From: Lachnospiraceae bacterium
GTDB lineage: Bacteria; Bacillota; Clostridia; Lachnospirales; Lachnospiraceae
Assembly: GCA_017625255.1 (NCBI GenBank)
Contig: JAGALK010000145.1
Location: 2,463 to 66,462, forward strand
Direction of reading: 5' to 3'
Length of the DNA stretch: 64,000 bases
Part shown: positions 4,917 through 64,000 of the stretch, piece after piece
Position numbering within the stretch: position 1 is the first letter of the stretch
Layout of the letters: every line of letters starts with the position of its first letter
Notes under the pieces: generated by a model
What the model was told of the DNA's origin: nothing
Seen by the model: the letters and a program-made list of their open reading frames with translations, nothing else
The model's database searches: none
Translations under genes and position numbers: made by a program

Positions 4917-5108
4917 TTACTGTGCCTGCTTTTCGCACCACCCATCGGATAAGTCGTATAAGTGGAAGTGTGAAGCTGTGCTGTATTCTGCAACTGCCTC
5001 TTCTTCCATTTCTTCTGCACAGTACCACATATTGATTGCGTCCTGTGCCAAGACACCGATAACTACCGCAAAAACAGTTGTTACGAGCATAAATCCCACA
5101 AATTCCAT
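4917..5108 (-). CDS. small membrane protein (63 aa)
   Basis: ATG 5108 with SD aaggagg; N-terminal hydrophobic helix FVGFMLVTTVFAVVIGVLA; first gene after cassette C. Confidence 0.55.
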   Translation of the reverse strand: MEFVGFMLVTTVFAVVIGVLAQDAINMWYCAEEMEEEAVAEYSTASHFHLYDLSDGWCEKQAQ

Positions 5109-5140
5109 GTGAGCCTCCTTTCTTCGCTTTTTAGCGATTT

Positions 5141-5287
5141 GTGACAACAAAAAAAGGAAGTACCCCCTACGGAGTTCTTCCTTAATTGTCAGCCTTATTT
5201 TGTTGTTGATTGTTACAAGGACATTGTAGCAAATTATAGAACACTTTGCAAGTATAAAAAAGAGGGTAGCAGTGTACCCTCTTTTTT
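5141..5287 (-). promoter_or_regulatory. terminator-promoter-leader cassette C
   Basis: Terminator 5287-5256. -35 TTGCAA 5251-5246, 17 bp, -10 TACAAT 5228-5223. Leader hairpin 5181-5156 plus U7. Mini-hairpin CGCUAAAAAGCG 5136-5125 before the SD. Confidence 0.65.
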
Positions 5288-5587: not shown

Positions 5588-6859
5588 TTATACGGCTTCT
5601 TCTACTGCACATTCCTTGATTTCAATTTTCTTCAAGGAAACGGGTTCATCAAGTTTCTTCTTCGGTGCGATTTTGTAATTACGCACTTCCTTGATTACCC
5701 CGCCGGCTTTTTGTGCCTTCTTATTCTCTTTGACAATTTCTTTTGTAATCTTGTCATACAAGGCTTTGTCAAATTTCTCTACAAGACACTGTTTATAAAG
5801 GTCCGGCTGTTCGGCTTTAAGCCGTTCTTCATCGAAACCTGTGCGGGTTTCTTTGTATTTCAATGAAATAGCCACATACTTTTCATCATCAAGACGGTAA
5901 GTAGCGTATTCCGTTCCCGCTTCGGCAAAAGAGAGAATAGCGTTTACCAAAGCATATTCCTCGGCTTCGATTGTTTCCAATGCCTTTTCTGCCTTTTCCT
6001 TCCTTGCGGTCAACTCTGTTGCCTTCTCAATCAGTTCGTAAATTTCGTAACTGTCGGGAAGTTCCACCGCAGGGGCGTTTTCAGCAGGTTCGCCGTAAAG
6101 TCTTGTGTAATATTCCGCAAGCATCTTCTCGCTTTTTACACAAGGTTCGGGTTCCTTGCCTTCGTAGCAACATTCAATGAAATCTGCTACCGAAGACATC
6201 ATCTGCTGTTCAATATCCATATCTCTGCGGATAAGGATAATTGCGTTTTCTGCCTTTGTAAAGCCCCAGCTACAAGTGAGATATACGAACTCCACATTGG
6301 CAATCGCCATATAGTACCGACACTGGTACTCGTAGGATTTCGGCGGTATGCCTAATTTCCAATTTTTAATGTCGCTGTAAGAACTTGTAGTTTTACATTC
6401 CACCAAGCCTTCAACGCCGTTTACTTTAACTCTGCGGTCAAAGTTACCGAGGGCGAAAGGGTAGTGAGGGTGCTGATACATTGTGGTATCGTTCCATATT
6501 TCAATATCCTTCACGCCCTCGTCCTCTTTCATTTTACGGACGAACATATTTGCCACAAATTCTTCCAATTCGTGACCTGCTCTTAAAGCCTCTTCGTTCA
6601 TCGGCTTTTCTACCGCAGTTTTTAATCCGGTCTTCTGGTGGAAGAGTTCAAGGTTGGTCTTAAATTTCGACACTCCAAGAATTACTCCCACATCGGAACC
6701 GCCTGCGGTGTACTCAATGTACTCCGGGTGCGTCGGATCGTCGTAATGAGGACCGTGCTTTCTGCACCCTAACCATTCGGGGCTTCCGTCCACATATTTG
6801 CCTAATGCGATAGGCTTGTAGTTGGTGTTGATAGTTCCTGCGTTTGATACTTTACTCAT
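5588..6859 (-). CDS. YqaJ/lambda-exonuclease-like PD-(D/E)XK recombination exonuclease with ~150-aa C-terminal coiled-coil extension
   Basis: Trimmed to ATG 6859 (SD aaaggagg). Contains GGSDVGVILG and FDRRV...GLVECKTT (D...ExK), as in YqaJ viral recombinase family nucleases. First gene after cassette D. Confidence 0.7.
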   Translation of the reverse strand: MSKVSNAGTINTNYKPIALGKYVDGSPEWLGCRKHGPHYDDPTHPEYIEYTAGGSDVGVILGVSKFKTNLELFHQKTGLKTAVEKPMNEEALRAGHELEEFVANMFVRKMKEDEGVKDIEIWNDTTMYQHPHYPFALGNFDRRVKVNGVEGLVECKTTSSYSDIKNWKLGIPPKSYEYQCRYYMAIANVEFVYLTCSWGFTKAENAIILIRRDMDIEQQMMSSVADFIECCYEGKEPEPCVKSEKMLAEYYTRLYGEPAENAPAVELPDSYEIYELIEKATELTARKEKAEKALETIEAEEYALVNAILSFAEAGTEYATYRLDDEKYVAISLKYKETRTGFDEERLKAEQPDLYKQCLVEKFDKALYDKITKEIVKENKKAQKAGGVIKEVRNYKIAPKKKLDEPVSLKKIEIKECAVEEAV

Positions 6860-6889
6860 AAAGTACCTCCTTTCTTGAATTTGTTTTTT

Positions 6890-7040
6890 TGACAACAAAA
6901 AAGGAAGCACCCCTACGGAGTATCTTCCTTATTGTTAGTCTTTTTTGTTAAGTTGTAGTTACAAGTATATATTACAATAATATGGGAAACTTTGCAAGCA
7001 TAAAAAAAAGAGAGTAGCAGTAGCCACTCTCTCCTTTTTT
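6890..7040 (-). promoter_or_regulatory. terminator-promoter-leader cassette D
   Basis: Terminator 7040-7003. -35 TTGCAA 6997-6992, 17 bp, -10 TAATAT 6974-6969. Leader hairpin 6928-6903 plus U6. Confidence 0.65.
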
Positions 7041-7045
7041 TTTCT

Positions 7046-7516
7046 TTACGCAACTACCATATAACCATTATAACGGTCATTGAGCTTAATTTTATGAGTT
7101 TCATAATCGAAATCTTCTGTTTCTTCTATGAAAATCTGTGAACTCAAAGTTGCATCAGTGACTTCTCCGTTTTTCCATTTTAGAACGAAAATTTTGTAAT
7201 TTCCCTGCGACTGATCGGAAAATTCGTGGTAGAGTTCTTCTTCTCCCAGCATTTCGGACAGCTTTTTTGCGACAAACATCGGAGTTGCGTTTGCTGTCTG
7301 CAAGAAAATAGTATCTTCTTTTGTGTCAGAAAAGTAAAGTCTTCCGTCGCAACCCCAGTTAGCATATCGCCAACCAAAAATACCCGTCGGATCATATTCT
7401 TCCGCATACTGGGCGTATTCTTCCGGTCTTGACGGAATTACGGCATTAAAATCTTCGCCGTCCCATAATTCTGTCAAGCCTTTCGCATTAAAAATGTTTC
7501 TGTAAATGTTACTCAT
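7046..7516 (-). CDS. hypothetical protein (156 aa)
   Basis: Trimmed to ATG 7516 (SD aaggag); first gene after cassette E. Confidence 0.6.
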   Translation of the reverse strand: MSNIYRNIFNAKGLTELWDGEDFNAVIPSRPEEYAQYAEEYDPTGIFGWRYANWGCDGRLYFSDTKEDTIFLQTANATPMFVAKKLSEMLGEEELYHEFSDQSQGNYKIFVLKWKNGEVTDATLSSQIFIEETEDFDYETHKIKLNDRYNGYMVVA

Positions 7517-7546
7517 AGGTTCTCCTTCCTGCCTTTTTAGGCATAG

Positions 7547-7700
7547 TGACAACAAAAATAGGAAGTACCCCTTGCGGAGTTCTTCCTATTGTTAGTCTTT
7601 TTTTGTCGTCAAGATTTTTGTTACAGTGTCATTGTACTATATTTTGCAGTAAATTTCAAGCATAAAAAAGAGAGTAGCAGTAGCCCACTCCCTTTTTTTA
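7547..7700 (-). promoter_or_regulatory. terminator-promoter-leader cassette E
   Basis: Terminator 7700-7665. -35 TTGAAA 7659-7654, 17 bp, -10 TACAAT 7636-7631. Leader hairpin 7586-7561 (GCAA loop) then UAUUUUUG. Mini-hairpin 7542-7531. Confidence 0.65.
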
Positions 7701-11439: not shown

Positions 11440-11772
11440 ATGTCAGAAGATAGTATCATTGAAAAATTACATAGCATATCTGAAATGTATTCCGATAATT
11501 CTTCCAGCAATGAAGCTATTACGCAAGCTATTTCTTATATAGAAGAATTGAAAGAATATCATTCTGTCGGCACCGTCAATTATGTCCGTGAATTGAATGA
11601 TTTATATGTAGGCAAAGAACCGCTGTTTGTGAAGCGTTCTTTTACCAATTTTTATATTTGCCCCCATTGTTCAACGAATGAAACTTATAATCCCGTTTAT
11701 TCCCAAGCAGAGCATTGTAGTAAATGCGGTGGCAGGCTTTTATGGAAACACAAGGAAAGAAAGGAGAACTAA
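11440..11772 (+). CDS. small zinc-ribbon protein (110 aa)
   Basis: ATG 11440 with SD aaggag; CPHC...CSKCGG pair at the C-terminus. Confidence 0.55.
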   Translation: MSEDSIIEKLHSISEMYSDNSSSNEAITQAISYIEELKEYHSVGTVNYVRELNDLYVGKEPLFVKRSFTNFYICPHCSTNETYNPVYSQAEHCSKCGGRLLWKHKERKEN

Positions 11773-11774
11773 CG

Positions 11775-13979
11775 ATGTCAAAAATGATTATTATTACAGA
11801 AAAACCGTCTGTCGCACAAGATTACCGCAAATATTTGCAGGTTAATTCCACAGAAAAAAACGACGGTTATATTGAAGGTTATTCTACTGTTTTTAATAAG
11901 GAAGTAATTATTACATGGGCGAGGGGACACCTTGTTACGATGTCATATCCGCAGGCTTACGACGAAAGCCTTAAACAGTGGTCCCTTGATAGTCTTCCTT
12001 TTCTTCCTGCGGAATATAAGTATGAAGTTATTGCAGATGTAAAAAAACAATTCTATACCATAAAAAAGTTATACCACCGGGACGATATTGATGCCATTTA
12101 TTACGCAGGTGATAGTGCCCGTGAAGGTCTTTATATTCAAATGCTTATTCGCCAAATTGCAGGCGTAAAGCGTGGAATAACAGAAAAAGTAGTATGGATT
12201 GACAGCACTACGGAGAAGGAAATACTACGAGGGATCCGTGAGGCGAAAGATATTAGTGCTTATCAATTAAAGAAAGAAAGTGCCTATATGCGTGCAATCG
12301 AAGATTACGCTGTCGGCATCAATTTTTCAAGAGCCTTAACCTGTAAATTCGGTGCTGATTTCAATAAAACATTAGGTACAAGCAGTTGGACTTCCATATC
12401 AGCCGGGCGTGTAATGAGTTGCGTTTTAGGTATGATTGTTTCAAGGGAAAGAGAAATTAAAAATTTCGTTGTTACTCCCTTTTATCGTGTCGTAGCTGAT
12501 GTAGCAGGCGTTACGGCTAACTGGAAGGCTGTAAGCACTTCTGCGTGGTTTGAAAGCCCGCTTTTATATAACGAAACGGGATTTATTAAGGAAAGCGATG
12601 CAAGCCTCCTTGTTAATACTATGCAGAAGACACCTACACTTACTGTTGATAAGGTAAAAACAACCGAAGAGAAAAAGGGTGCGTCCCTTTTATTCAATCT
12701 TGCGGAATTACAGTATTTTTGTTCCAAGAAGTATAAGATTTCGCCCGATGATACTCTTGCCGTAGCACAGAAACTATACGAGGCAAAAATGATAACTTAT
12801 CCGAGAACTGATGCAAGAGTATTATCAACTGCGATTGCATCTGATTTACGAGATAATTTGAATGGGCTTGCAAAGTTTGGATATAAAAGCCATTTTATTA
12901 AAATTATTGCACAGAACGGTTGGCATCATAATATCGTAAAATCTCCTTATGTTGATGATGCGAAAATTTCAGACCACTATGCGATTATTCCTACGGGTAA
13001 TACTGCCAGCGTGAATGAATTATCAGACCTTGAATTGAATATCTTTTATGATATTATTGAAAGGTTTTTATGTATATTCTTCCCTCCTTGCGTTTACGAA
13101 AAAACAGAAGTGGTTTTCGCCCATGTTCTCGGAGAACGCTTCTTTGCATCTGCAAAAACTATTAAAAGCGTAGGGTTTATGGCTATCCTTGACGAAACCA
13201 CGGAAACGGAAGAAAATCCATTAAGCCTTTTAAAAGAGGGCGATGAATTTAATGATATTCCTTTTTCTATAAAGGAAGGTACCACTACACCTCCGAAACG
13301 ATATACTTCGGGTAGTATGGTGATCGCAATGGAAAATGCAGGAAAAATGATAGAAGATGAAGAATTGCGTGCCAATATTATCGGTTCCGGTATCGGCACC
13401 TCTGCGACAAGGGCTTCCATTATTAAAAAGCTGGTTGATATTTCCTATATACAGCTGAACAAAAAGACACAGATACTTACCCCTACCGTGATAGGAGAGA
13501 GTGTTTATGATATTCTTCTTGCTAATATGCCTGCGTTGCTGTCCCCGGAAATGACTGCATCTTGGGAAAAGGGTTTGACTGAAATCGAAGACGGTAAAGT
13601 AACTGCGGAAGAATACCGCAGGAAGTTGGAAAAATATGTGACTGATGAAGTCAATAAAATCAAACAGTCGCAAAGTTCTTTTGAACTGCCCGAAGGCGTG
13701 GAAATTCAGAAACTTATGTGTCCGGTCTGCGGAAAGGGAGAAGTAAGAGAGAACTCAAAAGGCTTTGGCTGTTCTGATTACCGCAACGGCTGTAAATTCT
13801 TCATTCAGAAGGAAATTGCCGGGAAGAAGATAACGGTAAATCAAGTTGCTAAATTAGTCGCAGGAGAGCGTACTGGTGTCCTCAAAGGCTTTAAGAATAA
13901 AGAGGGTAAGGAGTTTAGTGCATCGTTAGAGTTGCAGAATGGAAAAGTAGCTTTTGTATTTCCAAGAAAAAAGTCATAA
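11775..13979 (+). CDS. type IA DNA topoisomerase (topoisomerase III-like) with C-terminal zinc ribbons
   Basis: Trimmed to ATG 11775 (SD aaaggag). TOPRIM start MIIITEKPSVA, acidic motif GDSAREG, active-site region ITYPRTDA, and C-terminal CPVCGKG...CSDYRNGCKF. Confidence 0.85.
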   Translation: MSKMIIITEKPSVAQDYRKYLQVNSTEKNDGYIEGYSTVFNKEVIITWARGHLVTMSYPQAYDESLKQWSLDSLPFLPAEYKYEVIADVKKQFYTIKKLYHRDDIDAIYYAGDSAREGLYIQMLIRQIAGVKRGITEKVVWIDSTTEKEILRGIREAKDISAYQLKKESAYMRAIEDYAVGINFSRALTCKFGADFNKTLGTSSWTSISAGRVMSCVLGMIVSREREIKNFVVTPFYRVVADVAGVTANWKAVSTSAWFESPLLYNETGFIKESDASLLVNTMQKTPTLTVDKVKTTEEKKGASLLFNLAELQYFCSKKYKISPDDTLAVAQKLYEAKMITYPRTDARVLSTAIASDLRDNLNGLAKFGYKSHFIKIIAQNGWHHNIVKSPYVDDAKISDHYAIIPTGNTASVNELSDLELNIFYDIIERFLCIFFPPCVYEKTEVVFAHVLGERFFASAKTIKSVGFMAILDETTETEENPLSLLKEGDEFNDIPFSIKEGTTTPPKRYTSGSMVIAMENAGKMIEDEELRANIIGSGIGTSATRASIIKKLVDISYIQLNKKTQILTPTVIGESVYDILLANMPALLSPEMTASWEKGLTEIEDGKVTAEEYRRKLEKYVTDEVNKIKQSQSSFELPEGVEIQKLMCPVCGKGEVRENSKGFGCSDYRNGCKFFIQKEIAGKKITVNQVAKLVAGERTGVLKGFKNKEGKEFSASLELQNGKVAFVFPRKKS

Positions 13980-24341: not shown

Positions 24342-24557
24342 TTAATTGTGCCACCAAGCATTTTTTAACCGTTTTTCTTCTTCGGCTTCTTTTACCTGCT
24401 TGATGTGTTCTTTGACTTCTGCTTCCGTCTTGAATGAGTGCATAATACTGCACCCACTTCCGTCGTTCCTCTGCTCAAACCACATAAACTTCTGTAATCC
24501 TGCACAGTAGTTTATCTTTTCGCCGAGGAAAGTTTCCTTATATACGATTGCACTCAT
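24342..24557 (-). CDS. hypothetical protein (71 aa)
   Basis: ATG 24557 with SD aaggagg; first gene after cassette F. Confidence 0.5.
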   Translation of the reverse strand: MSAIVYKETFLGEKINYCAGLQKFMWFEQRNDGSGCSIMHSFKTEAEVKEHIKQVKEAEEEKRLKNAWWHN

Positions 24558-24589
24558 AGGCAACCTCCTTTCTGCCTTTTTAGGCTTTG

Positions 24590-24701
24590 CGACAACAAAA
24601 AAAGGAAGTTACCCCGTTGGAGTATCTTCCTTTTGTTAGTCTATTTTGTTGTGAACTATTTGTTACAAGTATACTTTACAATATTTTTAGGAAAATTACA
24701 A
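24590..24701 (-). promoter_or_regulatory. promoter-leader cassette F (abuts 3' end of the XRE gene)
   Basis: -35 TTGTAA 24701-24696, 17 bp, -10 TAAAGT 24678-24673. Leader hairpin 24630-24604 plus U7. Mini-hairpin 24585-24574. Confidence 0.55.
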
Positions 24702-42244: not shown

Positions 42245-42268
42245 ATTTTTCTCCCTTCTTAAATTGCA

Positions 42269-42292
42269 CAGAGTATCATAATGATACCTTGT
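42269..42292 (-). promoter_or_regulatory. 7-1-7 palindromic box 1 (GTATCAT-A-ATGATAC) in the recD2-like 5' UTR
   Basis: Plus strand reads cagaGTATCATaATGATACcttgt. Lies between promoter 42318-42346 and the RBS. Confidence 0.5.
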
Positions 42293-42317
42293 AAAGTCGT
42301 TGTTATTTGTTGGTTCT

Positions 42318-46774: not shown

Positions 46775-47353
46775 TTACAGCCGGGAACCCAATAAAAGGT
46801 TCACCATTTCCCTATTTTCTTCCATTTTTTCTTCAATATGAAGAAGTCTGGAAGACTTTACCCCTTCCTCCACAAAAGGATTTTCGCCCAGCGTTTCCGC
46901 TATTTCATGGGCGATTAACGAAAGCCCTACTTTCTTTATAAATTCCACGGGGCTTTCGTTAAGGAGTTCTTCTTCGTTGCAGAAGTACACAATGTCGCCG
47001 TACACATCTGCACAAATTTCGGAATATTCATCAGTTACTACTCTGATATATCCCGTAAGTAAAGCATTGTATACTTCTACTTCATAACGATATTTTTCTG
47101 CCAGTTCTTTTGTGATTTCGCAATCTACACCACTAATTTCGCATAACTCCTTTTCTACGGCTAAATCAACTGCAATCTTTCTGATCGAAATTTCCTGCAA
47201 ATTATCTTCACCGTAAAGTCCGTCCTCGAAGTGAACAAAATATTTACCATTTTCCTTATTGCGATAATAGTAAATGTTATCGTTCCACTCCTCTCCTCTT
47301 TTTTTGTAAGTGCGTTTGCAAGACGCAATTATTTCATAGTTTTCTTTGCTCAT
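46775..47353 (-). CDS. hypothetical protein (192 aa)
   Basis: Trimmed to ATG 47353 (SD aagggagg); first gene after cassette H. Confidence 0.55.
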   Translation of the reverse strand: MSKENYEIIASCKRTYKKRGEEWNDNIYYYRNKENGKYFVHFEDGLYGEDNLQEISIRKIAVDLAVEKELCEISGVDCEITKELAEKYRYEVEVYNALLTGYIRVVTDEYSEICADVYGDIVYFCNEEELLNESPVEFIKKVGLSLIAHEIAETLGENPFVEEGVKSSRLLHIEEKMEENREMVNLLLGSRL

Positions 47354-47383
47354 GTGAGCCTCCCTTCTGCCATTTTTGGCTTG

Positions 47384-47535
47384 CGACAATAAAAAAAGGA
47401 AGTACCCCTTGCGGAGTTCTTCCTATTGTTAGTCTTTTTTTGTCGTCAAGATTTTGTTACAAGGTTATTGTAATACACTTTGCAGGAAATTTCAAGATAA
47501 AAAAAGAGAGTGACCGTAGCCACTCCCTTTCTTAA
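47384..47535 (-). promoter_or_regulatory. terminator-promoter-leader cassette H
   Basis: Terminator 47535-47500. -35 TTGAAA 47495-47490, 17 bp, -10 TACAAT 47472-47467. Leader hairpin 47423-47398 plus U7. Mini-hairpin 47380-47369. Nearly identical to cassette E. Confidence 0.65.
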
Positions 47536-50790: not shown

Positions 50791-51759
50791 TTACGCTACC
50801 TTTGCCAACGCCCATACACCGTATGATACATTGACGAACTTATCGCTCTGTTGAAGGATTTGTCGTACCTTTGCTTTCCATTCAGAATTTGTTTCACATT
50901 TTTTGTGACCTTCTATTTCTGAATATATTTCTTCCAGTGGTGCATCGTGACCTATCTTCTGCATTACTGCATAAACCACATCTCTCCAAGTTGCACTCTT
51001 ACTATCTCTGATGTCAATTTCGTGCTTTGTAGGCAGTGAAAAATCAATCAGATAGGGTGCAATCTTTTTGAGTACCATAAGGTATTCGTGTTCGATAGGT
51101 ACGAAATTCCTACTTCCGTATGAGATATTCTCTCTGCCGGACACAGTATTGTGCTGTAATTTAATAATTACCTGCTCTAACTGTCCGGGTTTGACAATAT
51201 CAGCAAACATACTCTTAAAGCCAATGGGTTTTCTTCGCACATCGCCCATTAAAATACTCATTTTACCGCCATTCATCATAGCGGAATAGTATTTCATTAC
51301 GATAGCGTTTAAGGTAGACATGAACTGGTCCCAGTCCATATTCCCTAAATCTGCTTTGCGAAGTTCTCCCGTAGGATCAGAGTAATTTTTCCCAGCCCAA
51401 CTAATATTACAAATATTGCTGTAAGGCGGGTGCATAAAGAGCATATCTGCGTCCATAAACGCTTCGGGAACCTCGTCTGTAATTGCATTTACATTCAAGA
51501 TGCCCGGACGCACGGGATTAGGATTTAAGTCGGCACCGACATAGGATATACCCATATCTTTGCAGACATCATATCCGGTACCACTTCCGCTGAATAATTC
51601 TGCCATTTTCTCAACACGGTATTTCCATATCAAGAACGCATGAACCCAGCCGGAACAGTTCCCACGATACTGTGAGTTTCCCCACTCTCCTCGGTTTGGA
51701 AATGATAAAACCGTACTATCGTGTTTCATCAACTCCATTTCAATTTCTTTACGGTTCAT
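50791..51759 (-). CDS. DNA (N6-adenine or N4-cytosine) methyltransferase-like protein with C-terminal winged-helix (HARE-HTH/Mrr_N-like) tail
   Basis: Motif I ELFSGSGTG precedes an atypical motif IV FMHPPY. C-terminal ...IYSEIEGH...KAKVRQILQQSDKFVNVSYGVWAL. First gene after cassette I. Confidence 0.55.
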   Translation of the reverse strand: MNRKEIEMELMKHDSTVLSFPNRGEWGNSQYRGNCSGWVHAFLIWKYRVEKMAELFSGSGTGYDVCKDMGISYVGADLNPNPVRPGILNVNAITDEVPEAFMDADMLFMHPPYSNICNISWAGKNYSDPTGELRKADLGNMDWDQFMSTLNAIVMKYYSAMMNGGKMSILMGDVRRKPIGFKSMFADIVKPGQLEQVIIKLQHNTVSGRENISYGSRNFVPIEHEYLMVLKKIAPYLIDFSLPTKHEIDIRDSKSATWRDVVYAVMQKIGHDAPLEEIYSEIEGHKKCETNSEWKAKVRQILQQSDKFVNVSYGVWALAKVA

Positions 51760-51782
51760 AAGTGAACCTCCTTTCTTTTTTT

Positions 51783-51925
51783 TGACAACAAAAAAAGGAA
51801 GTACCCCTACGGAGTTCTTCCTTTTTGTTAGTCGATATTTTGTTAAAATTTGTTACAAGATTATTGTAATATATCTTTTATAGAATTGCAAGCATAAAAA
51901 AGAGAGTAGCAATGCCACCCTCTTT
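51783..51925 (-). promoter_or_regulatory. terminator-promoter-leader cassette I (drives methyltransferase gene)
   Basis: Terminator 51925-51895. -35 TTGCAA 51891-51886, 17 bp, -10 TACAAT 51868-51863. Leader hairpin 51821-51797 plus U7, then AAAAAAAAGAAAGGAGG RBS directly. Confidence 0.65.
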
Positions 51926-55180: not shown

Positions 55181-55204
55181 ATTTGGTAGTTAGTTGTTAC
55201 TTAC

Positions 55205-55251
55205 ACAAGCCTCCCCTACACCATCGTTTTTTACGGGTTCGGTGCTTGCTA
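55205..55251 (-). other. conserved leader RNA motif, copy 2
   Basis: Same arms as copy 1, with a different central hairpin (CGU...ACG). Lies between the cassette J hairpin and element T5. Confidence 0.4.
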
Positions 55252-55259
55252 TGCAGTTT

Positions 55260-55420
55260 TGACAACAAAAAAAGGGAAGATACCCCTACGGAGTTTCTTC
55301 CTTCTGTTAGTCTTTTTTTGTTGTTATAATTATTACAAGTATACTTTACAATATTTCGGAGAAAATTGCAAGCGTTATTTTTGCAATAAAAAAGGCACAC
55401 CGTTTGGTATGCCCTTTTCT
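55260..55420 (-). promoter_or_regulatory. terminator-promoter-leader cassette J
   Basis: Terminator 55420-55389 (different sequence). -35 TTGCAA 55371-55366, 17 bp, -10 TAAAGT 55348-55343. Leader hairpin 55301-55275 plus U7. Confidence 0.6.
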
Positions 55421-56248: not shown

Positions 56249-56297
56249 AGTAATTACCTTTGCCGGACCACGACGGGTACGGCTCCTTTCTTTTTTT
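56249..56297 (-). promoter_or_regulatory. hairpin-SD element T6
   Basis: AAAAAAAGAAAGGAG-CCGUACC CGUCGU GGUCCGG-CAAAGGUAAUUACU-AUG; hairpin 56282-56263. Confidence 0.5.
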
Positions 56298-56438: not shown

Positions 56439-57647
56439 TTAATTTGCCAAAATATCCTTTTCGATTGCCTCTATATCATAATCCTGCTTCATTATATTAT
56501 CGTTTGCACTCTTTTTACTTCCTTGACTTCCACCAGCACTTGAATAATTATTGCGGATCGCAGAAATCATAAACCCGACCACATTATCAACCTGCGTAGT
56601 TGATTTCAGAATAGCATAGGCTTTTTCGGTTTTTTCCCTTGAATATCCGGCTTCTTCTGCAATAGAGCGCAAGTCTTTTAATTTTAGCGGTGTATCAATA
56701 AGGTCTGATAACCAGTCTATGTATTCATCTTTTTCTTCTTCGGTTATCGTTATTATTTCTTCTTCCTCTGGTAAATCAGTTCTTATTGTTGGTAAAACCT
56801 CTACGGTAAAGAATATTGCTGTTACTTTACCGCCTCTACCACGCTTTATAGGTACATATTCTACACGAATATCCGTCTTTTCATTGATTTCTTTTATTGC
56901 CGGACGCAGGGCTGATCGTTCAAACTCGCCCCACTTTTCATATTTTTTTTCTTTCGCAACTGCTACTGCTTTTTCGTAGTCCGGTTTTTTAGATTTATTC
57001 AGTACGCTTTTTACTTCCTCTGCTCCGGAATTAACCAAGCCTAAATCCAGCAACAATTCCGCAAGGTTATATTCAAACTCATAAGTTCTTAATTCATTAC
57101 TAATTTCGTTGATTTTCTCTCCGGGTTCAAAAGCCTTCTGCTTTAATACTTGATATAATAGTGAAGAATGTAGGCTTTTAAACGACATCGTTATCTGTTC
57201 CAAGAATTTTGTATAGTTCGACTTAATATCTACAATATAATCTTTCAGATAAGGATTGTAGTATATTTTAAACTTACCATTCTCGCACTGTGCCCTTATA
57301 ATAAGTGCCATATAATCAAATTCTTTTTTTTCGGGATTTGAAAAACCGATATTTCGTCCGGTCATATTGTCAGCTACTTCTTCCAGTTCATTATATAAGG
57401 AGTTTCCTTTTCTCCCCATACACTCCTTTATATCTGTAACATCAAGAGTAGATACCAATGCACCTGTTTCTTTTTCGATTGTGTAATTATGTATTCGGGC
57501 AAGGCTCATGTGTAATACTTTCTGCTCTAATAATGTGGTTTTATATTTTGCTCTCAATATTACATTACTTATTTTGGCAACTACATCTTCTTTTTTTGTG
57601 TAAACCGCTAACCCGGTACCCGTATCGTCTTTGCTCTTTATCTCCAT
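56439..57647 (-). CDS. replication initiator protein (Rep_3/RepB-like, iteron-binding type)
   Basis: N-terminal SNVILRAKYKTTLLEQKVLHMSLARI is the typical Rep_3 opening. 402 aa. Lies immediately downstream of a consensus promoter and a ~700-bp iteron array. Confidence 0.7.
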   Translation of the reverse strand: MEIKSKDDTGTGLAVYTKKEDVVAKISNVILRAKYKTTLLEQKVLHMSLARIHNYTIEKETGALVSTLDVTDIKECMGRKGNSLYNELEEVADNMTGRNIGFSNPEKKEFDYMALIIRAQCENGKFKIYYNPYLKDYIVDIKSNYTKFLEQITMSFKSLHSSLLYQVLKQKAFEPGEKINEISNELRTYEFEYNLAELLLDLGLVNSGAEEVKSVLNKSKKPDYEKAVAVAKEKKYEKWGEFERSALRPAIKEINEKTDIRVEYVPIKRGRGGKVTAIFFTVEVLPTIRTDLPEEEEIITITEEEKDEYIDWLSDLIDTPLKLKDLRSIAEEAGYSREKTEKAYAILKSTTQVDNVVGFMISAIRNNYSSAGGSQGSKKSANDNIMKQDYDIEAIEKDILAN

Positions 57648-57738: not shown

Positions 57739-58454
57739 TTTTACTGTTTTTCTACATCAAATAAACCTTTAATTTTTGATATTTTGTGGATTTATATTTT
57801 TGCTGAACACAAGATATTGTTTTCTTCAAAAACTTACGCTTTTTAGTGTTGATTTTCGGTAAATAGGTTTTCTTTACTGCCTTTTTTCCTTCTTTTTTGC
57901 AATAAAAAGCAGTATTATGTTTACCGTTTTTATACATCAAAAACCTATTTTAAGGTTGTTTTTACTGTTTTTCTACACAACTTTTACTGTTTTTCTACAC
58001 AAGTTCAGTCTTTTTACTCAATTTTTCTTTCTGTTTGCACCTTATATTACCGGATTTCTCCGTGCTTTTTACTGTTTTTTTACATAAGTAAGCTTAATCT
58101 TACCGATTTTCTACATAACTTTTACTGTTTTTTTACATACATATTACTGTTTTTCTACATACCTTATTCTCTTTTTTCGGCATTTTTCAAAAACTTTCGA
58201 TTTTAGGCATTATATTAAAAAGTTACTTTTACATTTGTTATTACCGAAAAAATACATCAAAAAGACTTTTTTACCGTCATTCTACATAAGTTTTCCCGCC
58301 GTACTACATAAGTTTTACCGCTATACTACATAAGTAACACCGAAAAAGTACACACCTAAAACGCCCAAAATTTCCCGCCATACTACATAACTTTTCCCGT
58401 TTTTCTACATAACTTTTCCCGCCATACTACATAACTTTTACTGTTTTTCTACAT
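57739..58454 (+). repeat. iteron array of the Rep_3-type origin (about 16 direct repeats of 19-22 bp)
   Basis: Type A TTTTACTGTTTTTCTACAT at 57739, 57960, 57982, 58076, 58120, 58142, 58436. Type B TTTTCCCGCCATACTACAT at 58291, 58370, 58414. Hybrids at 58097, 58267, 58313, 58392. Degenerate copies at 57918, 58238, 58335. Exact 22-bp phasing at 58392/58414/58436. Confidence 0.8.
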
Positions 58455-58500
58455 TTAAAAAACCCGCAATCCCTTGAAAATACTGGGTTTGTGGGTTTCC

Positions 58501-60752: not shown

Positions 60753-60782
60753 AAAAACAGAAGAGATTTTTCTCTCTTCTGT
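60751..60782 (-). terminator. intrinsic terminator upstream of the recG promoter
   Basis: ACAGAAGAGA GAAAAA UCUCUUCUGU plus U7. Confidence 0.7.
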
Positions 60783-60787
60783 TCTCT

Positions 60788-60813
60788 CACAGAGTATCAT
60801 AATGATACCTTGT
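60788..60813 (-). promoter_or_regulatory. 7-1-7 palindromic box 2
   Basis: cacagaGTATCATaATGATACcttgt, 5 nt from terminator 60751-60782 and ~40 nt upstream of the recG promoter -35. Confidence 0.5.
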
Positions 60814-60951
60814 CGTATTGCGACGCTGTATTTTCGATTTTTAGCCGTTTTTGCCGGTTTAGGGTAGTCTTATATATCTTTTGTATTTTTGGGTGGCTAA
60901 ATAAGGCTAAAACAAAGCGTGGGGACCTTTTTTATTTTGGCGTATTGTTAC

Positions 60952-61768: not shown

Positions 61769-62805
61769 TAGTTTGCCCCCTCTCCTGCCTGCCAGCTGGT
61801 ACTTGGCATACAATTCCATTTAATTTCTTCGCCATTACTGGTACAAACGACGGATCCTTGTTCATCAGTTCTGAATACATTTATTCCGTAATTCCGCAAT
61901 AAATTAAGCACCGTTGCGTGAGGTTGGAAATATTCATTGTTTTCGCCTACGCTAATAACTGCATATTCGGGAGATACTTCCGCAAGGAATGTGGGTGTGG
62001 TGGAAGTCTTGGAACCGTGATGCGATATTTTTAATACATCACAGTCTATATTATAAATTCCTTCTACCATATCTGCTTCTGCCAACTCTTCTGCATCTCC
62101 ACAAAACAGATATTTCGTAGAACCATATTCTAACAGTATGCAGATTGAATTATCATTACACTCTTCATACATCTGCACCGGACCGATAATTGTGAATGTT
62201 GCATCGCCTAAATTATAAGTATCACCTACGCTGGGAACTTCTGATACATACCCTTTTTCTTTCATTGCTTCTTCCACATAATACATCGTCCCGGTATCTC
62301 TATCGTAACCGGAGAAGAATATTTTATCGCAGGTCAATATTTCGCTACCAAAGATTTCAGATAAACCTCCTATATGGTCTGCGTCCGGGTGCGTTGCAAT
62401 CACATAATCTAAATGGTTATCTTCCAGCTGGTAATCAACATACGCTTCTACGCCTTCTCCATAATCCCAATATCCAGCATCTATCAGCATTGCATCATCG
62501 CCACACATAATTAAGGTTGCATCTCCCTGCCCTACATCTATGAAATGAATTTCAAGGTCGCCTTCGGTTCCGATGATTACTTCTGCTGGTTCGTTTTCTT
62601 CGGCATTATTCTCCTCGCTATTACCTTCTTTTATAGCTTCAATCAATCCTTCGGTCTTCTCCACTACAAAGTTTGATAATTTATCTTCCCAGTCTTTTAC
62701 TGCAATGGGTATTTTTATGCTTCCAATATCTATCGCCGAAATCAACAAAATAAATATAACTGCTATAAGTATTCCAATGGTTATTTTAAGAAAAAACTGC
62801 TTCAT
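61768..62805 (-). CDS. membrane-anchored metallo-beta-lactamase-fold hydrolase (ComEC C-terminal-domain-like nuclease)
   Basis: N-terminal TM ITIGILIAVIFILLISAI; HFIDVGQGDATLI, ATHPDADHIGG, KISHHGS as in the ComEC/Rec2 lactamase_B domain. Confidence 0.7.
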   Translation of the reverse strand: MKQFFLKITIGILIAVIFILLISAIDIGSIKIPIAVKDWEDKLSNFVVEKTEGLIEAIKEGNSEENNAEENEPAEVIIGTEGDLEIHFIDVGQGDATLIMCGDDAMLIDAGYWDYGEGVEAYVDYQLEDNHLDYVIATHPDADHIGGLSEIFGSEILTCDKIFFSGYDRDTGTMYYVEEAMKEKGYVSEVPSVGDTYNLGDATFTIIGPVQMYEECNDNSICILLEYGSTKYLFCGDAEELAEADMVEGIYNIDCDVLKISHHGSKTSTTPTFLAEVSPEYAVISVGENNEYFQPHATVLNLLRNYGINVFRTDEQGSVVCTSNGEEIKWNCMPSTSWQAGEGAN

Positions 62806-62834
62806 ACTTCATCTCCCTTCGCTTATTTATGTAT

Positions 62835-62863
62835 ATTATACCATAACAAAACAAGAAAAACAA
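62835..62863 (-). promoter_or_regulatory. promoter of the MBL-hydrolase operon
   Basis: TTGTTT 62863-62858, 17 bp, TGgTATAAT (-10 at 62840-62835). Confidence 0.55.
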
Positions 62864-62966
62864 AAAAAGCACCAAGACTACGGGACTGTCTTGATGCTTT
62901 TCTCTATTTTTAAGATCGTAACAAAATTTTTTGTTGTCACAGAAAGGATAGCCCTCCCGTTAGGCT
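62862..62966 (-). ncRNA. candidate small RNA 2 (~105 nt), antisense to a second inverted cassette relic
   Basis: Promoter TTGCTT 63001-62996, 17 bp, TATACT 62978-62973. Terminator hairpin 62898-62868 plus U-run. Contains UCCUUUCU-GUGACAACAAAAAA-UUUUGUUAC. Confidence 0.4.
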
Positions 62967-63012
62967 GATTTAAGTATAGCACTTTGTAATGCGAAAAGCA
63001 AATTTTTACCGA

Positions 63013-63036
63013 CAGAGTATCATTATGATACCTTGT
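63013..63036 (-). promoter_or_regulatory. 7-1-7 palindromic box 3
   Basis: cagaGTATCATtATGATACcttgt, ending 12 bp upstream of the -35 of the sRNA-2 promoter. Confidence 0.5.
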
Positions 63037-63057
63037 GGGTGATATTATCTTTTTATT

Positions 63058-63081
63058 GACAGAGTATCATTATGATACTTT
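63058..63081 (-). promoter_or_regulatory. 7-1-7 palindromic box 4
   Basis: gacagaGTATCATtATGATACttt; its centre is 47 bp from box 3. Confidence 0.5.
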
Positions 63082-63088
63082 ATTGAAT

Positions 63089-63237
63089 AAAAAAATAGAC
63101 CGTACCTGCGGGAAGGTATCGGTCTGATTGTAACAAACAACTTGACTTTTTGTTGTCATATAAAGTTTTTCAACTTTAAGAAAGGAGGCACATTAGCATA
63201 AACCAATATACCAATCCGGGAGTTCCCGCCTACTCTT
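63089..63237 (-). ncRNA. candidate small RNA 1 (~150 nt), antisense to an inverted, hairpin-less relic of the leader cassette
   Basis: Promoter TTGCAT 63272-63267, 17 bp, TGgTATTAT (-10 at 63249-63244). Terminator hairpin 63125-63097 plus U7 (63095-63089). No ORF with an SD. Carries CCUCCUUUCUU (anti-SD), UGACAACAAAAA and UUUGUUACAA, in the antiparallel order of the cassette leader segments. Confidence 0.45.
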
Positions 63238-63280
63238 GATATTATAATACCACTGTTATTTTTAAAATGCAAATATCATA

Positions 63281-63371
63281 AAAAAGAAAAAGCAGACAAG
63301 TTTTTCCTGCCTGCTTTTCTTATTTATCTATAACACAAAAAAAGAAAGGATAAAGTAATGATGTACTTTAT
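63281..63371 (-). ncRNA. candidate small RNA 0 (~90 nt)
   Basis: Promoter TTGAGT 63406-63401, 17 bp, TGaTATAAT (-10 at 63383-63378). Terminator hairpin 63315-63291 plus U-run. Contains UCCUUUCUUUUUUUG, complementary to the AAAAAAAGAAAGGA flank of the hairpin-SD elements. Could alternatively be just the 3' UTR of the S1-domain gene. Confidence 0.3.
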
Positions 63372-63416
63372 ATTTGTATTATATCATCTTTTACACAAAA
63401 ACTCAAATTTTTACCA

Positions 63417-64000
63417 TTACTGAACGAAGGTTCCAAAAATCTTTTTTCTTCCGGTCTTTTCATCAATATCTTTTTCAGTAATTTTTACAACTCGTTCCTG
63501 CCCCGGCATCGGCATTTCGCCAAACTTTGGATATGCAACCAAACAGTCCATACCGTCAATATCCGGTAAGCGAACAAAAACACCGCTTGATGCAAGTGAA
63601 GTAACCACGCAGGTATAATGTCCGTTTTCGATAAAATCATCAAAGTATTTATCGGTAGGATTAACCGTAGTCTGCTTTAAGCTGAATTTAGGCTTTACGA
63701 GAGTGTAATTATTATTGTACTTTGTTACCTCTTTTGTTTTTACCTCTAAAATCTTAACATTGACAATCTGATCTACTTTGAACATTTCTCTGAAATCATC
63801 ACAGTAATTCCAGCAAATTTCATTTTCATCAGCATTTGCTCTTAATGTTCTTTCTGCACCTAATGCACAGATAGTTACGGATTTCTTATTTCTTCTTACT
63901 ACTCTACCCTGTGCAATCATTCCCGGTGTAATACGGGGCTTGCCGTCTTTGGTGGGTTTTACATAGTTAAAAAATCCGTCAGTATCTAACGCCTGCAATC
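63417..64000 (-). CDS. S1/OB-fold RNA-binding domain protein, C-terminal part (5' end outside the window)
   Basis: GRVVRRNKKSVTICALG... and GHYTCVVTSLASSGVFVRLPDIDGMDCLV resemble two S1-type motifs. The ORF is open to the window edge. Confidence 0.55.
   Translation of the reverse strand, partial: LQALDTDGFFNYVKPTKDGKPRITPGMIAQGRVVRRNKKSVTICALGAERTLRANADENEICWNYCDDFREMFKVDQIVNVKILEVKTKEVTKYNNNYTLVKPKFSLKQTTVNPTDKYFDDFIENGHYTCVVTSLASSGVFVRLPDIDGMDCLVAYPKFGEMPMPGQERVVKITEKDIDEKTGRKKIFGTFVQ

Follow-up and report, generated by a model that had tools for sequence, protein, structure and literature searches.

Candidate trans-encoded antisense RNAs on a conjugative plasmid of uncultured Clostridia mirror the leader of a repeated promoter-leader cassette

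Introduction

Sibling trans-acting small RNAs (sRNAs) with CU-rich motifs that are complementary to the Shine-Dalgarno sequence (SD; anti-SD motifs) are known from Firmicutes, namely LhrC1-5 of Listeria monocytogenes and RoxS/RsaE. The c4 RNA of phages P1/P7 and the CI RNA of the satellite phage P4 are processed from the transcript that they control, act on one operon each and, in the case of CI, bring about premature termination. The antisense RNAs of the plasmids pT181 and pIP501/pAMbeta1 are encoded in cis opposite the rep leader, are fully complementary to it and control copy number through a preemptor/terminator switch. Here we analyse a 610-base gene-free stretch (positions 62806-63416) of a 64,000-nucleotide piece of contig JAGALK010000145.1, the whole of which we call the window, where three minus-strand promoter-to-terminator units (U0, U1 and U2) follow one another. 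According to our preferred reading, to which we assign a probability of about one half, these are three independently transcribed non-coding sRNA genes on a Rep3/iteron conjugative plasmid of an uncultured member of the Acutalibacteraceae, and two of them, U1 and U2, would occlude in trans the SD of the mRNAs made from a promoter-leader cassette that is repeated along the plasmid.

The locus resembles the LhrC1-5 and RoxS/RsaE genes in that paralogous sRNA genes stand in tandem in one intergenic region, each with a sigma-A-type promoter and an intrinsic terminator, and in that single-stranded CU-rich stretches are predicted to pair with the SD of several mRNAs and to block their translation. 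Unlike in those systems, two extra blocks copy a plasmid-specific leader, the targets share a cassette instead of being unrelated mRNAs, and the genes lie on a conjugative plasmid and apparently target that plasmid's own genes. The c4 RNA had been named as a precedent in an earlier sequence-based annotation of this DNA (the original prediction), and part of the likeness stands, because here, too, an RNA is predicted to act in trans on short separate leader blocks, including the ribosome-binding region, and to silence the genes downstream on the same mobile element. The units are, however, not processed from a transcript that carries their targets, as c4 and CI are, but have promoters and terminators of their own, lie at a distant locus and face at least nine dispersed target copies. 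The other proposed precedent, pT181/pIP501, shares with our locus a plasmid antisense RNA that faces a leader with a terminator-like hairpin and a U-tract, but fails in the defining features of cis encoding and of the rep leader as target, and a preemptor switch is not apparent: the units are trans-encoded 8-63 kb from the cassettes, complementarity comes in three interrupted blocks, the Rep3 gene (56439-57647) is preceded by iterons and not by a cassette, and no alternative fold competing with the leader's terminator-like hairpin was found in the consensus or single-leader folds.

In the pLS20 family, the strong promoter module EGeRS2 is repeated before many operons and has one ribbon-helix-helix protein as its regulator (Val-Calvo et al, 2021; PMC8708921). 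The likeness to EGeRS2/EGeRS1 (PMC8708921), which is functional only and drawn from descriptions, lies in a Gram-positive conjugative plasmid on which one module stands before many operons, most of them of unknown function, so that the shared upstream sequence defines a regulon; unlike for EGeRS2, the candidate regulators here are RNAs directed at a shared leader, not a protein bound to promoters. The locus differs from all these systems in that trans-encoded RNAs, each transcribed from a promoter of its own, are combined with a target leader that is repeated.

Three conserved minus-strand units

The three units of the original prediction were recovered at the coordinates given below by a consensus scan, by inspection of the sequence and in the folds. 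The scan caught the promoters of U0 and U1 and the U0 terminator, and the U2 promoter and the other two terminators were seen in the sequence; these terminators had escaped the scan because the U1 stem is bulged and the U2 loop (9 nt) exceeds the loop limit of 8. Since this A+T-rich DNA holds no excess of promoter-like matches (9 found versus 13.4 expected), the case for the promoters rests on conservation.

Relatives were found via the flanking proteins. Three other lineages show the same order of S1-like gene, spacer free of open reading frames (ORFs) and metallo-beta-lactamase (MBL)-fold hydrolase gene, and all three units recur in each, which answers the question of conservation of the locus that had been attached to the original prediction. 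These lineages are locus L003, part of JAZQHB010000008.1 (105 kb; hereafter JAZQHB), which is the closest relative of the window and is binned with an Acutalibacteraceae metagenome-assembled genome; L020, to which L021 is identical; and L004+L022, joined by a 17-nt overlap. Spacer identity between the four lineages is 69-87% versus 40-61% at the four-fold degenerate sites of both flanking genes. All 12 promoter instances keep TTGnnn-17-TGnTAnnnT, and the promoter spacer sequences of U1 and U2 drift. The best-conserved parts of the intergenic region are the blocks proposed to pair with mRNA (U1 anti-SD 100%, U1 block 3 90%, U2 block 2 93%, U0 CU block 92%), compared with 67-79% for stems and 53-54% for spacers. 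Conservation extends to structure: double-sided pair changes occur in the terminator stems of U2 (three) and U0 (one), along with several one-sided G.U changes. The minus strand folds with z-scores of -4.4 (U0), -4.95 (U1) and -4.55 (U2), with none of 200 shuffles as good, versus -1.8, -1.3 and -1.3 for the plus strand. Profiles of the units searched with nhmmer detect exactly one copy of each unit per plasmid, at this locus, and a weak hit of the U2 profile on U1 (E = 0.003 in L003) makes these two units distant paralogues. From the sequence of the four lineages, each unit of about 91 to 149 nt is thus bounded by its own promoter and its own Rho-independent terminator.

U0 is the most conserved of the three. 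Its promoter TTGAGT-17-TGaTATAAT (63378-63406, minus strand, as for all unit features below) scores 10/12 in the scan, has the upstream TG and is invariant in 24 of 29 columns across the four lineages. The predicted RNA of about 91 nt (63281-63371) consists of a 5' hairpin (AAAGUA/UACUUU), a single-stranded CU-rich stretch with the anti-SD block UCCUUUCUUUUUUUGUG (63334-63350, 15 of 17 columns invariant) and an intrinsic terminator (63287-63319) with conserved G.U pairs, which is the first terminator past the S1-like gene. The promoter spacer (TTTTTGTGTAAAAGAT, 63384-63400) is repeated about 62 nt downstream, inside the U0 RNA, as TTTTTGTGTTATAGAT (63325-63340). This spacer is nearly invariant in the four lineages and identical in three, which is more than a promoter spacer needs, and it may therefore be a protein-binding repeat.

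U1 starts from TTGCAT-17-TGgTATTAT (63244-63272), found by the scan, whose hexamers, TG and 17-nt spacing are kept in the four lineages, and would yield an RNA of about 149 nt (63089-63237), as predicted from promoter and terminator. A hairpin at 63213-63188 keeps its pairing through G.U/G-C/A-U changes and needs three G.U pairs, where the other strand would have C-A mismatches. The terminator (63089-63125) reads AGACCGAUACC...GGUACGGUCU followed by U7, and an alignment inspected by eye shows compensatory stem changes between lineages. For U2, the promoter TTGCTT-17-TGcTATACT (62973-63001), read in the sequence and kept as TTGCnn-17-TGnTATAsT in the four lineages, and the terminator (62862-62898) predict an RNA of about 105 nt (62862-62966). 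In the U2 of the L004+L022 lineage, a 26-nt insertion with a small hairpin (AAGCGGAAACGCUU; L022 370-395) separates the anti-SD from block 2; it mirrors, in antisense, a small hairpin found between 3' arm and SD in several cassettes.

Both U1 and U2 contain a 5' segment complementary to the loop of their own terminator, GCGGGAA with UUCCCGC in U1 (63214-63232 with 63107-63114) and ACGGGA with UCCCGU in U2 (62953-62958 with 62877-62885). These motifs are compensatory between the two paralogues and invariant among orthologues, and a pseudoknot or kissing contact is possible. RNAalifold favoured the long-range pairing over the terminator stem of U1, which we report as an observation and not as a structure. 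Rfam gave no match at the gathering threshold in the window, the best sub-threshold score being 28 bits against a threshold of 59.

The repeated leader and its antisense copies

The predicted target, the promoter-leader cassette, is present in nine full copies in the window, all on the minus strand, where the original prediction had counted about 11, and in at least eight copies in the examined parts of JAZQHB. Most copies have a terminator upstream. The promoter TTGCAA-17-TAnnAT is followed, about 4 nt past the -10 box, by the motif TTGTAACA, then by a distal 5' arm (U)GACAACAAAAAAAG, the motif GACUAACAA, a hairpin GGAAGnnCUCC-GNNA-GGGGUnCUUCC with a tract of U7-8, and a 3' arm GUUGUC whose next base is A or C. 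Between this arm and the SD and ATG there is often a small hairpin. One example leader extends at 51745-51858 from its predicted start near TTGTAAC to ATG+12; the others lie at 55194-55338, 47339-47462, 24543-24668, 7502-7626, 6845-6964, 5094-5218, 2839-2956 and 195-313. In the consensus fold, GAC(U)AACAA is paired with UUGUUGUC around the central hairpin, of which the top together with the U-tract is flagged as terminator-like by a simple scan. When leaders are folded in isolation, their first 10 nt mostly stay single-stranded and so, in most leaders, does the greater part of the SD; the 3' arm pairs in cis.

All seven minus-strand occurrences of the 10-mer TTTTGTTGTC fall within cassettes, and its two plus-strand occurrences, at 62929 and 63148, are both in the region of the units. 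There the plus strand carries the inverted hairpin-less leader copy that had been noted at 63128-63188, and a second one at 62918-62948, both collinear with the leader and both without its central hairpin. Read as RNA, U1 presents CCUCCUUUCUU, UGACAACAAAAA and (G)UUUGUUACAA in this order and U2 presents UCCUUUCU, GUGACAACAAAAAA and UUUUGUUAC, which are exactly complementary to the SD (8-12 nt), the 3' arm (12-15 nt) and the 5' end (8-10 nt) of the leader. The distal 5' arm through the 3' side of the central hairpin is absent from both units in all four lineages.

Within U1, block 1 (the anti-SD CCUCCUUUCUU, 63178-63188) is invariant in the four lineages and has 10-12-nt matches to cassette SDs; block 2 (63147-63158) is complementary to the leader 3' arm UUUUUGUUGUCA, with 12-nt matches in six cassettes; and block 3 (GUUGUUUGUUACAA, 63128-63141), invariant in 12 of 14 columns, is complementary to the leader 5' end, with 9-10-nt matches to TTGTAACAAA. 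In U2, the anti-SD of block 1 (62941-62948) is partly masked in cis by CGGGAGGG; block 2 (62927-62940), also invariant in 12 of 14 columns, is complementary to the 3' arm UUUUUUGUUGUCAC, with 13-15-nt matches in seven window cassettes and 14-nt matches in five JAZQHB cassettes; and block 3 (62918-62926) is complementary to the 5' end GUAACAAAA. The proposal of a tripartite antisense RNA in antiparallel order thus holds for U1 and extends to U2, the complementarity being collinear and specific, and there is strong in silico support for both as trans-encoded antisense copies of the cassette leader from which the self-paired central hairpin has been omitted. One length needs correction: because the leader probably starts 1-3 nt inside TTGTAACAAA, the block pairing with its 5' end, put at 10 nt in the original prediction, is probably 7-9 nt long in the RNA.

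Predicted binding to the leaders

Full-length RNAduplex energies were dropped, as reverse-complement controls also appeared "significant" because A- and U-tracts pair. We used instead a net cofold binding energy that charges for the structure each RNA must open, and compared the nine leaders with shuffles, with reverse complements and with 51 other 5' regions of the plasmid. U1 binds the nine leaders with -17.9 kcal/mol (shuffles -7.2 +/- 1.4, z -7.8; reverse complement z +1.0), versus a mean of -6.8 kcal/mol for the other 5' regions (Mann-Whitney p = 1e-4). For U2 the leaders reach -14.0 kcal/mol (shuffles -6.5 +/- 1.4, z -5.4; reverse complement z -0.9) versus -7.4 kcal/mol (p = 2e-4). U0 gives -12.5 kcal/mol (shuffles -6.6 +/- 2.0, z -3.0; reverse complement z +0.5) versus -10.6 kcal/mol (p = 0.08). 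The comparison with shuffled controls that had been suggested for the original prediction therefore comes out in favour of U1 and U2; against the other 5' regions, specificity of U0 for the leaders is not clearly borne out.

In the predicted complexes of U1 and U2 with a leader, three collinear intermolecular helices form, one of them on the SD, and the central and small hairpins of the leader as well as the sRNA's own hairpins and terminator are left intact. The two RNAs differ in predicted preference, U2 for leaders ending ...GUUGUCAC and U1 for those ending ...GUCAAAA.

The single-stranded UCCUUUCUUUUUUUG of U0 matches AAAAAAAGAAAGGA, the flank of a second repeated feature, which we call the "hairpin-SD" element, and of one cassette SD; 14-nt matches to AAAAAAAGAAAGGA lie at 56297, 51782, 45174, 44446 and 2439. 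In this element (AAAAAAAGAAAGGAA-GCCGUACC-N6-GGUACGGC-AAAGGUAAAnnAAAUG), found on the minus strand upstream of the gene starts at 2389, 44395, 45125, 48101, 55130 and 56248, a conserved hairpin separates the start codon from an SD-like run of purines; the U0 RNA finds its best match in the A-rich flank of the element. The complementarity that the original prediction assigned to U0 is thus present but appears generic rather than specific to cassettes. As the motif is of low complexity and the binding not clearly cassette-specific, U0 would be a generic anti-SD RNA or an element of a 3'-untranslated region, with weaker support than the other two units; trans-acting pairing with cassette leaders, proposed for all three RNAs, is strongly supported in silico for U1 and U2 and weakly for U0.

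Matched changes in sRNAs and leaders

The JAZQHB leaders divide into two classes by their ends. In five of them the end reads ...UUGUUGUCAC, and U2 matches these over 14 nt; in two it reads ...UUGCUGUCAAAA (GCTGTC), and here the match is with U1, over 15-16 nt, because U1 of JAZQHB reads GACAGC where U1 of the window reads GACAAC. In cis the U-to-C change of the leader is uncompensated and leaves an A-C mismatch in the consensus fold. On the two GCTGTC leaders the cognate U1 attains -26.6 and -25.2 kcal/mol, versus -19.4 and -22.1 kcal/mol for the window U1 (3-7 kcal/mol weaker), and U2 stays at -7 to -9 kcal/mol, equal to background. A second event concerns block 3 of U2, which reads UAUGUUAC in JAZQHB, where four of the five GUCAC-class leaders (four of the eight leaders examined) start with GUAACAUA; in the window U2 reads UUUGUUAC and the leaders mostly start with GUAACAAA. 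We read both sRNA/leader changes as compensatory. Since target leaders are known for two lineages only, each covariation is a single event. A further case can be predicted from the sRNA side: U1 of the L004+L022 lineage reads UUUUUGACGACAAG, and leaders of that plasmid should then end in CUUGUCGUCAAAAA.

Proposed SD occlusion and rival explanations

From these data we infer that U0, U1 and U2 are transcribed, that U1 and U2 repress rather than activate, and that their biological role is the following. The sRNA would contact the accessible 5' end and the SD of a cassette mRNA, displace the leader's 5' arm from its 3' arm (UUUUUUGUUGUCA/C) and form three collinear helices, of 11-13 bp on the SD, 12-14 bp on the 3' arm and 7-13 bp within leader nt 1-14. 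With the SD buried, translation of all cassette-driven operons would be repressed together, and mRNA stability would probably be altered. Specificity would come from the two leader-specific blocks (5' end and 3' arm), whereas binding to ordinary SDs may be limited by the partial masking of the anti-SD in the free sRNAs (CGGGAGGG with CCUUUCUG in U2, GGA with UCC in U1). U0 may double as the 3' end of the upstream conjugation operon.

Several points weigh against this interpretation. The start sites and ends of the three RNAs are predictions from sequence. TTGTnACAA is palindromic and block 2 resembles the leader's own distal 5' arm, which makes single blocks ambiguous in orientation; direct-orientation matches in JAZQHB reach 13 nt, and three collinear blocks arise from the inverted orientation only. 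U0 shows no clear cassette specificity, and poor binding of U1 and U2 is predicted for two types of leader, those at 262 and 55287 with their orthologues. The evidence comes from four lineages in all, with target leaders known for two, and the syntenic but more distant L024 has a 172-nt spacer with one terminator, one promoter and no units, on a contig that ends before the point where cassettes would begin. Two sRNA promoters face at least nine strong cassette promoters, at which odds stoichiometric repression may be inefficient, and short leader RNAs ending at the hairpin-U7 could titrate the sRNAs. Finally, short gene conversion between inverted homologous segments could mimic the covariation, although this would require separate events in the two units, each spanning the hairpin deletion.

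Control at the terminator-like hairpin is possible but fits less well than SD occlusion. U1 and U2 might pair with the nascent leader and alter termination at the hairpin-U7 about 45-70 nt past the start, a countertranscript attenuation in trans of the kind that the original prediction had also put forward. Every leader has such a hairpin with U7-8, and block 3 of both sRNAs pairs with the first leader nucleotides, which emerge before the hairpin. However, the leader consensus shows no evident mutually exclusive preemptor/antiterminator structure, the SD block would have no role, and the largest block pairs with the 3' arm downstream of the U-tract, which is made only after the termination decision. 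We consider this mechanism unlikely.

Similarly improbable is an origin of the region as a stack of terminators and promoters that shields the conjugation operon from the maintenance module, with the inverted leader fragments as left-overs of rearrangements. Recombination between cassettes is plausible given their modular make-up (terminator, promoter, leader), the U0 terminator comes first after the S1-like gene, and in L024 a single terminator and a single promoter suffice as spacer. Left-overs would not, however, be expected to show leader-compensatory changes, nor does it fit that the leader-complementary blocks are 90-100% conserved versus 40-61% at neutral sites and that both paralogous units have retained the hairpin-less layout in all four lineages.

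A function of the DNA itself, in which the inverted TTGTAACAAA and TTTTTGTTGTCA serve as extra operators or decoys for a cassette-recognising protein on double-stranded or transferred single-stranded DNA, appears somewhat less probable still. A palindromic TTGTnACAA does mark the start site of every cassette, and bona fide palindromic boxes in the region (see below) co-vary with lineage, but the conserved anti-SD block, the conserved minus-strand promoters and terminators, the G.U-dependent, strand-specific structure and the antiparallel block order mirroring the RNA leader would all be left unexplained.

The one SD-led ORF of the region, which the original prediction had missed, is a plus-strand frame of 21 amino acids (63358-63423, MMYFIFVLYHLLHKNSNFYHY) antisense to U0 and overlapping the stop codon of the S1-like gene. 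We reject a type I toxin-antitoxin system with this frame as toxin and the U0 RNA as cis-antisense antitoxin as highly improbable: despite a good SD (AAAGAAAGGA, 7 nt before the ATG), a hydrophobic N-terminus and the antisense overlap with U0, the plus strand lacks a promoter, the nucleotides are conserved in the manner of an RNA and a promoter and not of a coding sequence, and the frame is cut to eight codons by the -10 box sequence in L003 and L004 (read by eye), which makes it probably not a gene and upholds the absence of a conserved ORF.

Neighbouring features and plasmid context

Between U1 and the U2 promoter, each of the four lineages carries palindromic boxes that differ in number and sequence. 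In the window these are box 4 (ACAGAGTATCATTATGATACTTT, 63059-63081) and box 3 (63012-63036, with its centre about 57 nt before the predicted start of U2), both of repeat family D8; the dispersed box ACAGAGTATCATwATGATACyTTGT is found at these two places and at 42257-42297 and 60778-60818, and relatives have a box of another sequence at the corresponding places. L024 has a different palindrome (AACTATCGCnACGATAGTT) in the same spacer, directly before the MBL promoter, and elsewhere; its positions in L024 are 5092, 7924, 9907 and 13690. By their sequence, the boxes look like operators, or centromere-like sites, of a putative co-evolving DNA-binding protein that would control the U2 promoter among others. 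As the boxes precede the U2 promoter, the RNA layer would itself be under protein control.

Past U2, the extended -10 (TGgTATAAT, 62835-62843, minus strand) of the MBL-fold hydrolase gene is kept in relatives, with the ATG at 62805. The encoded protein has a hydrophobic segment at its N-terminus, and its homologues (L024 10001-11035 and many others) often match the anti-Pycsar Apyc1 family (PF23023) or carry a ComEC/Rec2-like annotation.

On the other side, the "S1 gene" ORF of the window represents the C-terminal 193 amino acids of a 447-residue protein, which has no Pfam match itself but whose homologues carry PF00575 or an S1-domain annotation. Homologues were recovered with the full-length protein, whereas the truncated fragment found none. 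S1-like genes belong to the conjugation module and occur also in plasmids without the units, which leaves no tie between this protein and the RNAs and no support for its suggested role as RNA partner. More distant relatives of the gene (L005, L025-L027 and Butyrivibrio pCY186) stand in other gene contexts, with no units and no cassettes in the DNA examined. In L005, an A+T-rich array whose repeats (ATGTTAAAATG and similar; 11770-12230) recur about every 11 nt lies upstream of a ParA gene and looks like a partition centromere.

For most genes behind the cassettes no function is known; a methyltransferase-like gene and a gene for a YqaJ/RecE-like exonuclease among them hint at establishment genes, and genes of a type IV secretion system lie nearby. 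Two cassette types (195-262 and 55194-55261 in the window; L013 5809-5870; L020 19991-20032; L003 19977-20043) lack a following SD and ATG and have conserved hairpins there instead, such as CCACCCAGUCCGGAGAAACCGGAGGUGG and GCACCAAAGAAGAAAAGUUGGUGC, which change in a compensatory way from plasmid to plasmid; these types, for which poor binding of U1 and U2 is predicted, may be cassette-driven structured RNAs or long regulated leaders.

The window has a G+C content of about 36%, with nearly all genes on the minus strand, and also carries genes for a RecG-like helicase and the MBL-fold hydrolase. Upstream of the gene for the Rep3-family initiator lies an array of about 15 copies of a 22-bp iteron (TTTTACTGTTTTTCTACATAAC, 57740-58490), probably the vegetative replication origin; the nearest Rep3 proteins, with 28-36% identity, are those of Butyrivibrio megaplasmids. 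The ENA scaffold ERZ28654569 scaffold_746 (L001) is identical to the window and extends upstream of its last ORF, where it encodes a VirB4-like ATPase, a TraG/VirD4 coupling protein and RNase H, which identifies the element as a large conjugative plasmid and not a phage. Samples that contain this plasmid include ERZ28654569, SRR18763217, SRR17049901 and GCA_045540355.1. Neither the region nor the cassette is carried by any sequenced isolate plasmid, and PLSDB and a phage collection lack both. IMG/VR held no close relatives, whether sought by protein or by cassette pattern, and scans of JGI metagenomes gave 0 matches with the U0 pattern and, with the cassette pattern, single scattered matches only, which we take as chance.

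Implications

We tentatively suggest, as a possibility that we rate below SD occlusion itself, that U1 and U2 act as a master switch made of RNA, or as an immunity system, over the establishment regulon of a plasmid. If so, every cassette-driven operon would be silenced in an established cell, while after transfer into a naive recipient the cassettes would be active for as long as the sRNAs had not built up; the cassette genes of an incoming sibling plasmid would be shut down by the resident one, amounting to RNA-mediated exclusion; and the specificity classes (GUCAC versus GUCAAAA, GUUGUC versus GCUGUC) would co-evolve like phage immunity specificities. The matched sRNA and leader classes represent a natural experiment in the co-evolution of RNA specificity. 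The design, a leader antisense minus the self-paired hairpin with a masked anti-SD, is simple and portable and could be reused for multiplexed gene control.

If confirmed, the locus would stand for one-to-many antisense regulation in which targets are set by a repeated promoter-leader cassette and not by individually evolved sites on mRNAs, and it would parallel, at the level of RNA, the protein repressors over establishment regulons of Gram-positive conjugative plasmids. It would also offer a testable model for how dozens of genes of unknown function are coordinated on the large plasmids of uncultured gut Clostridia.

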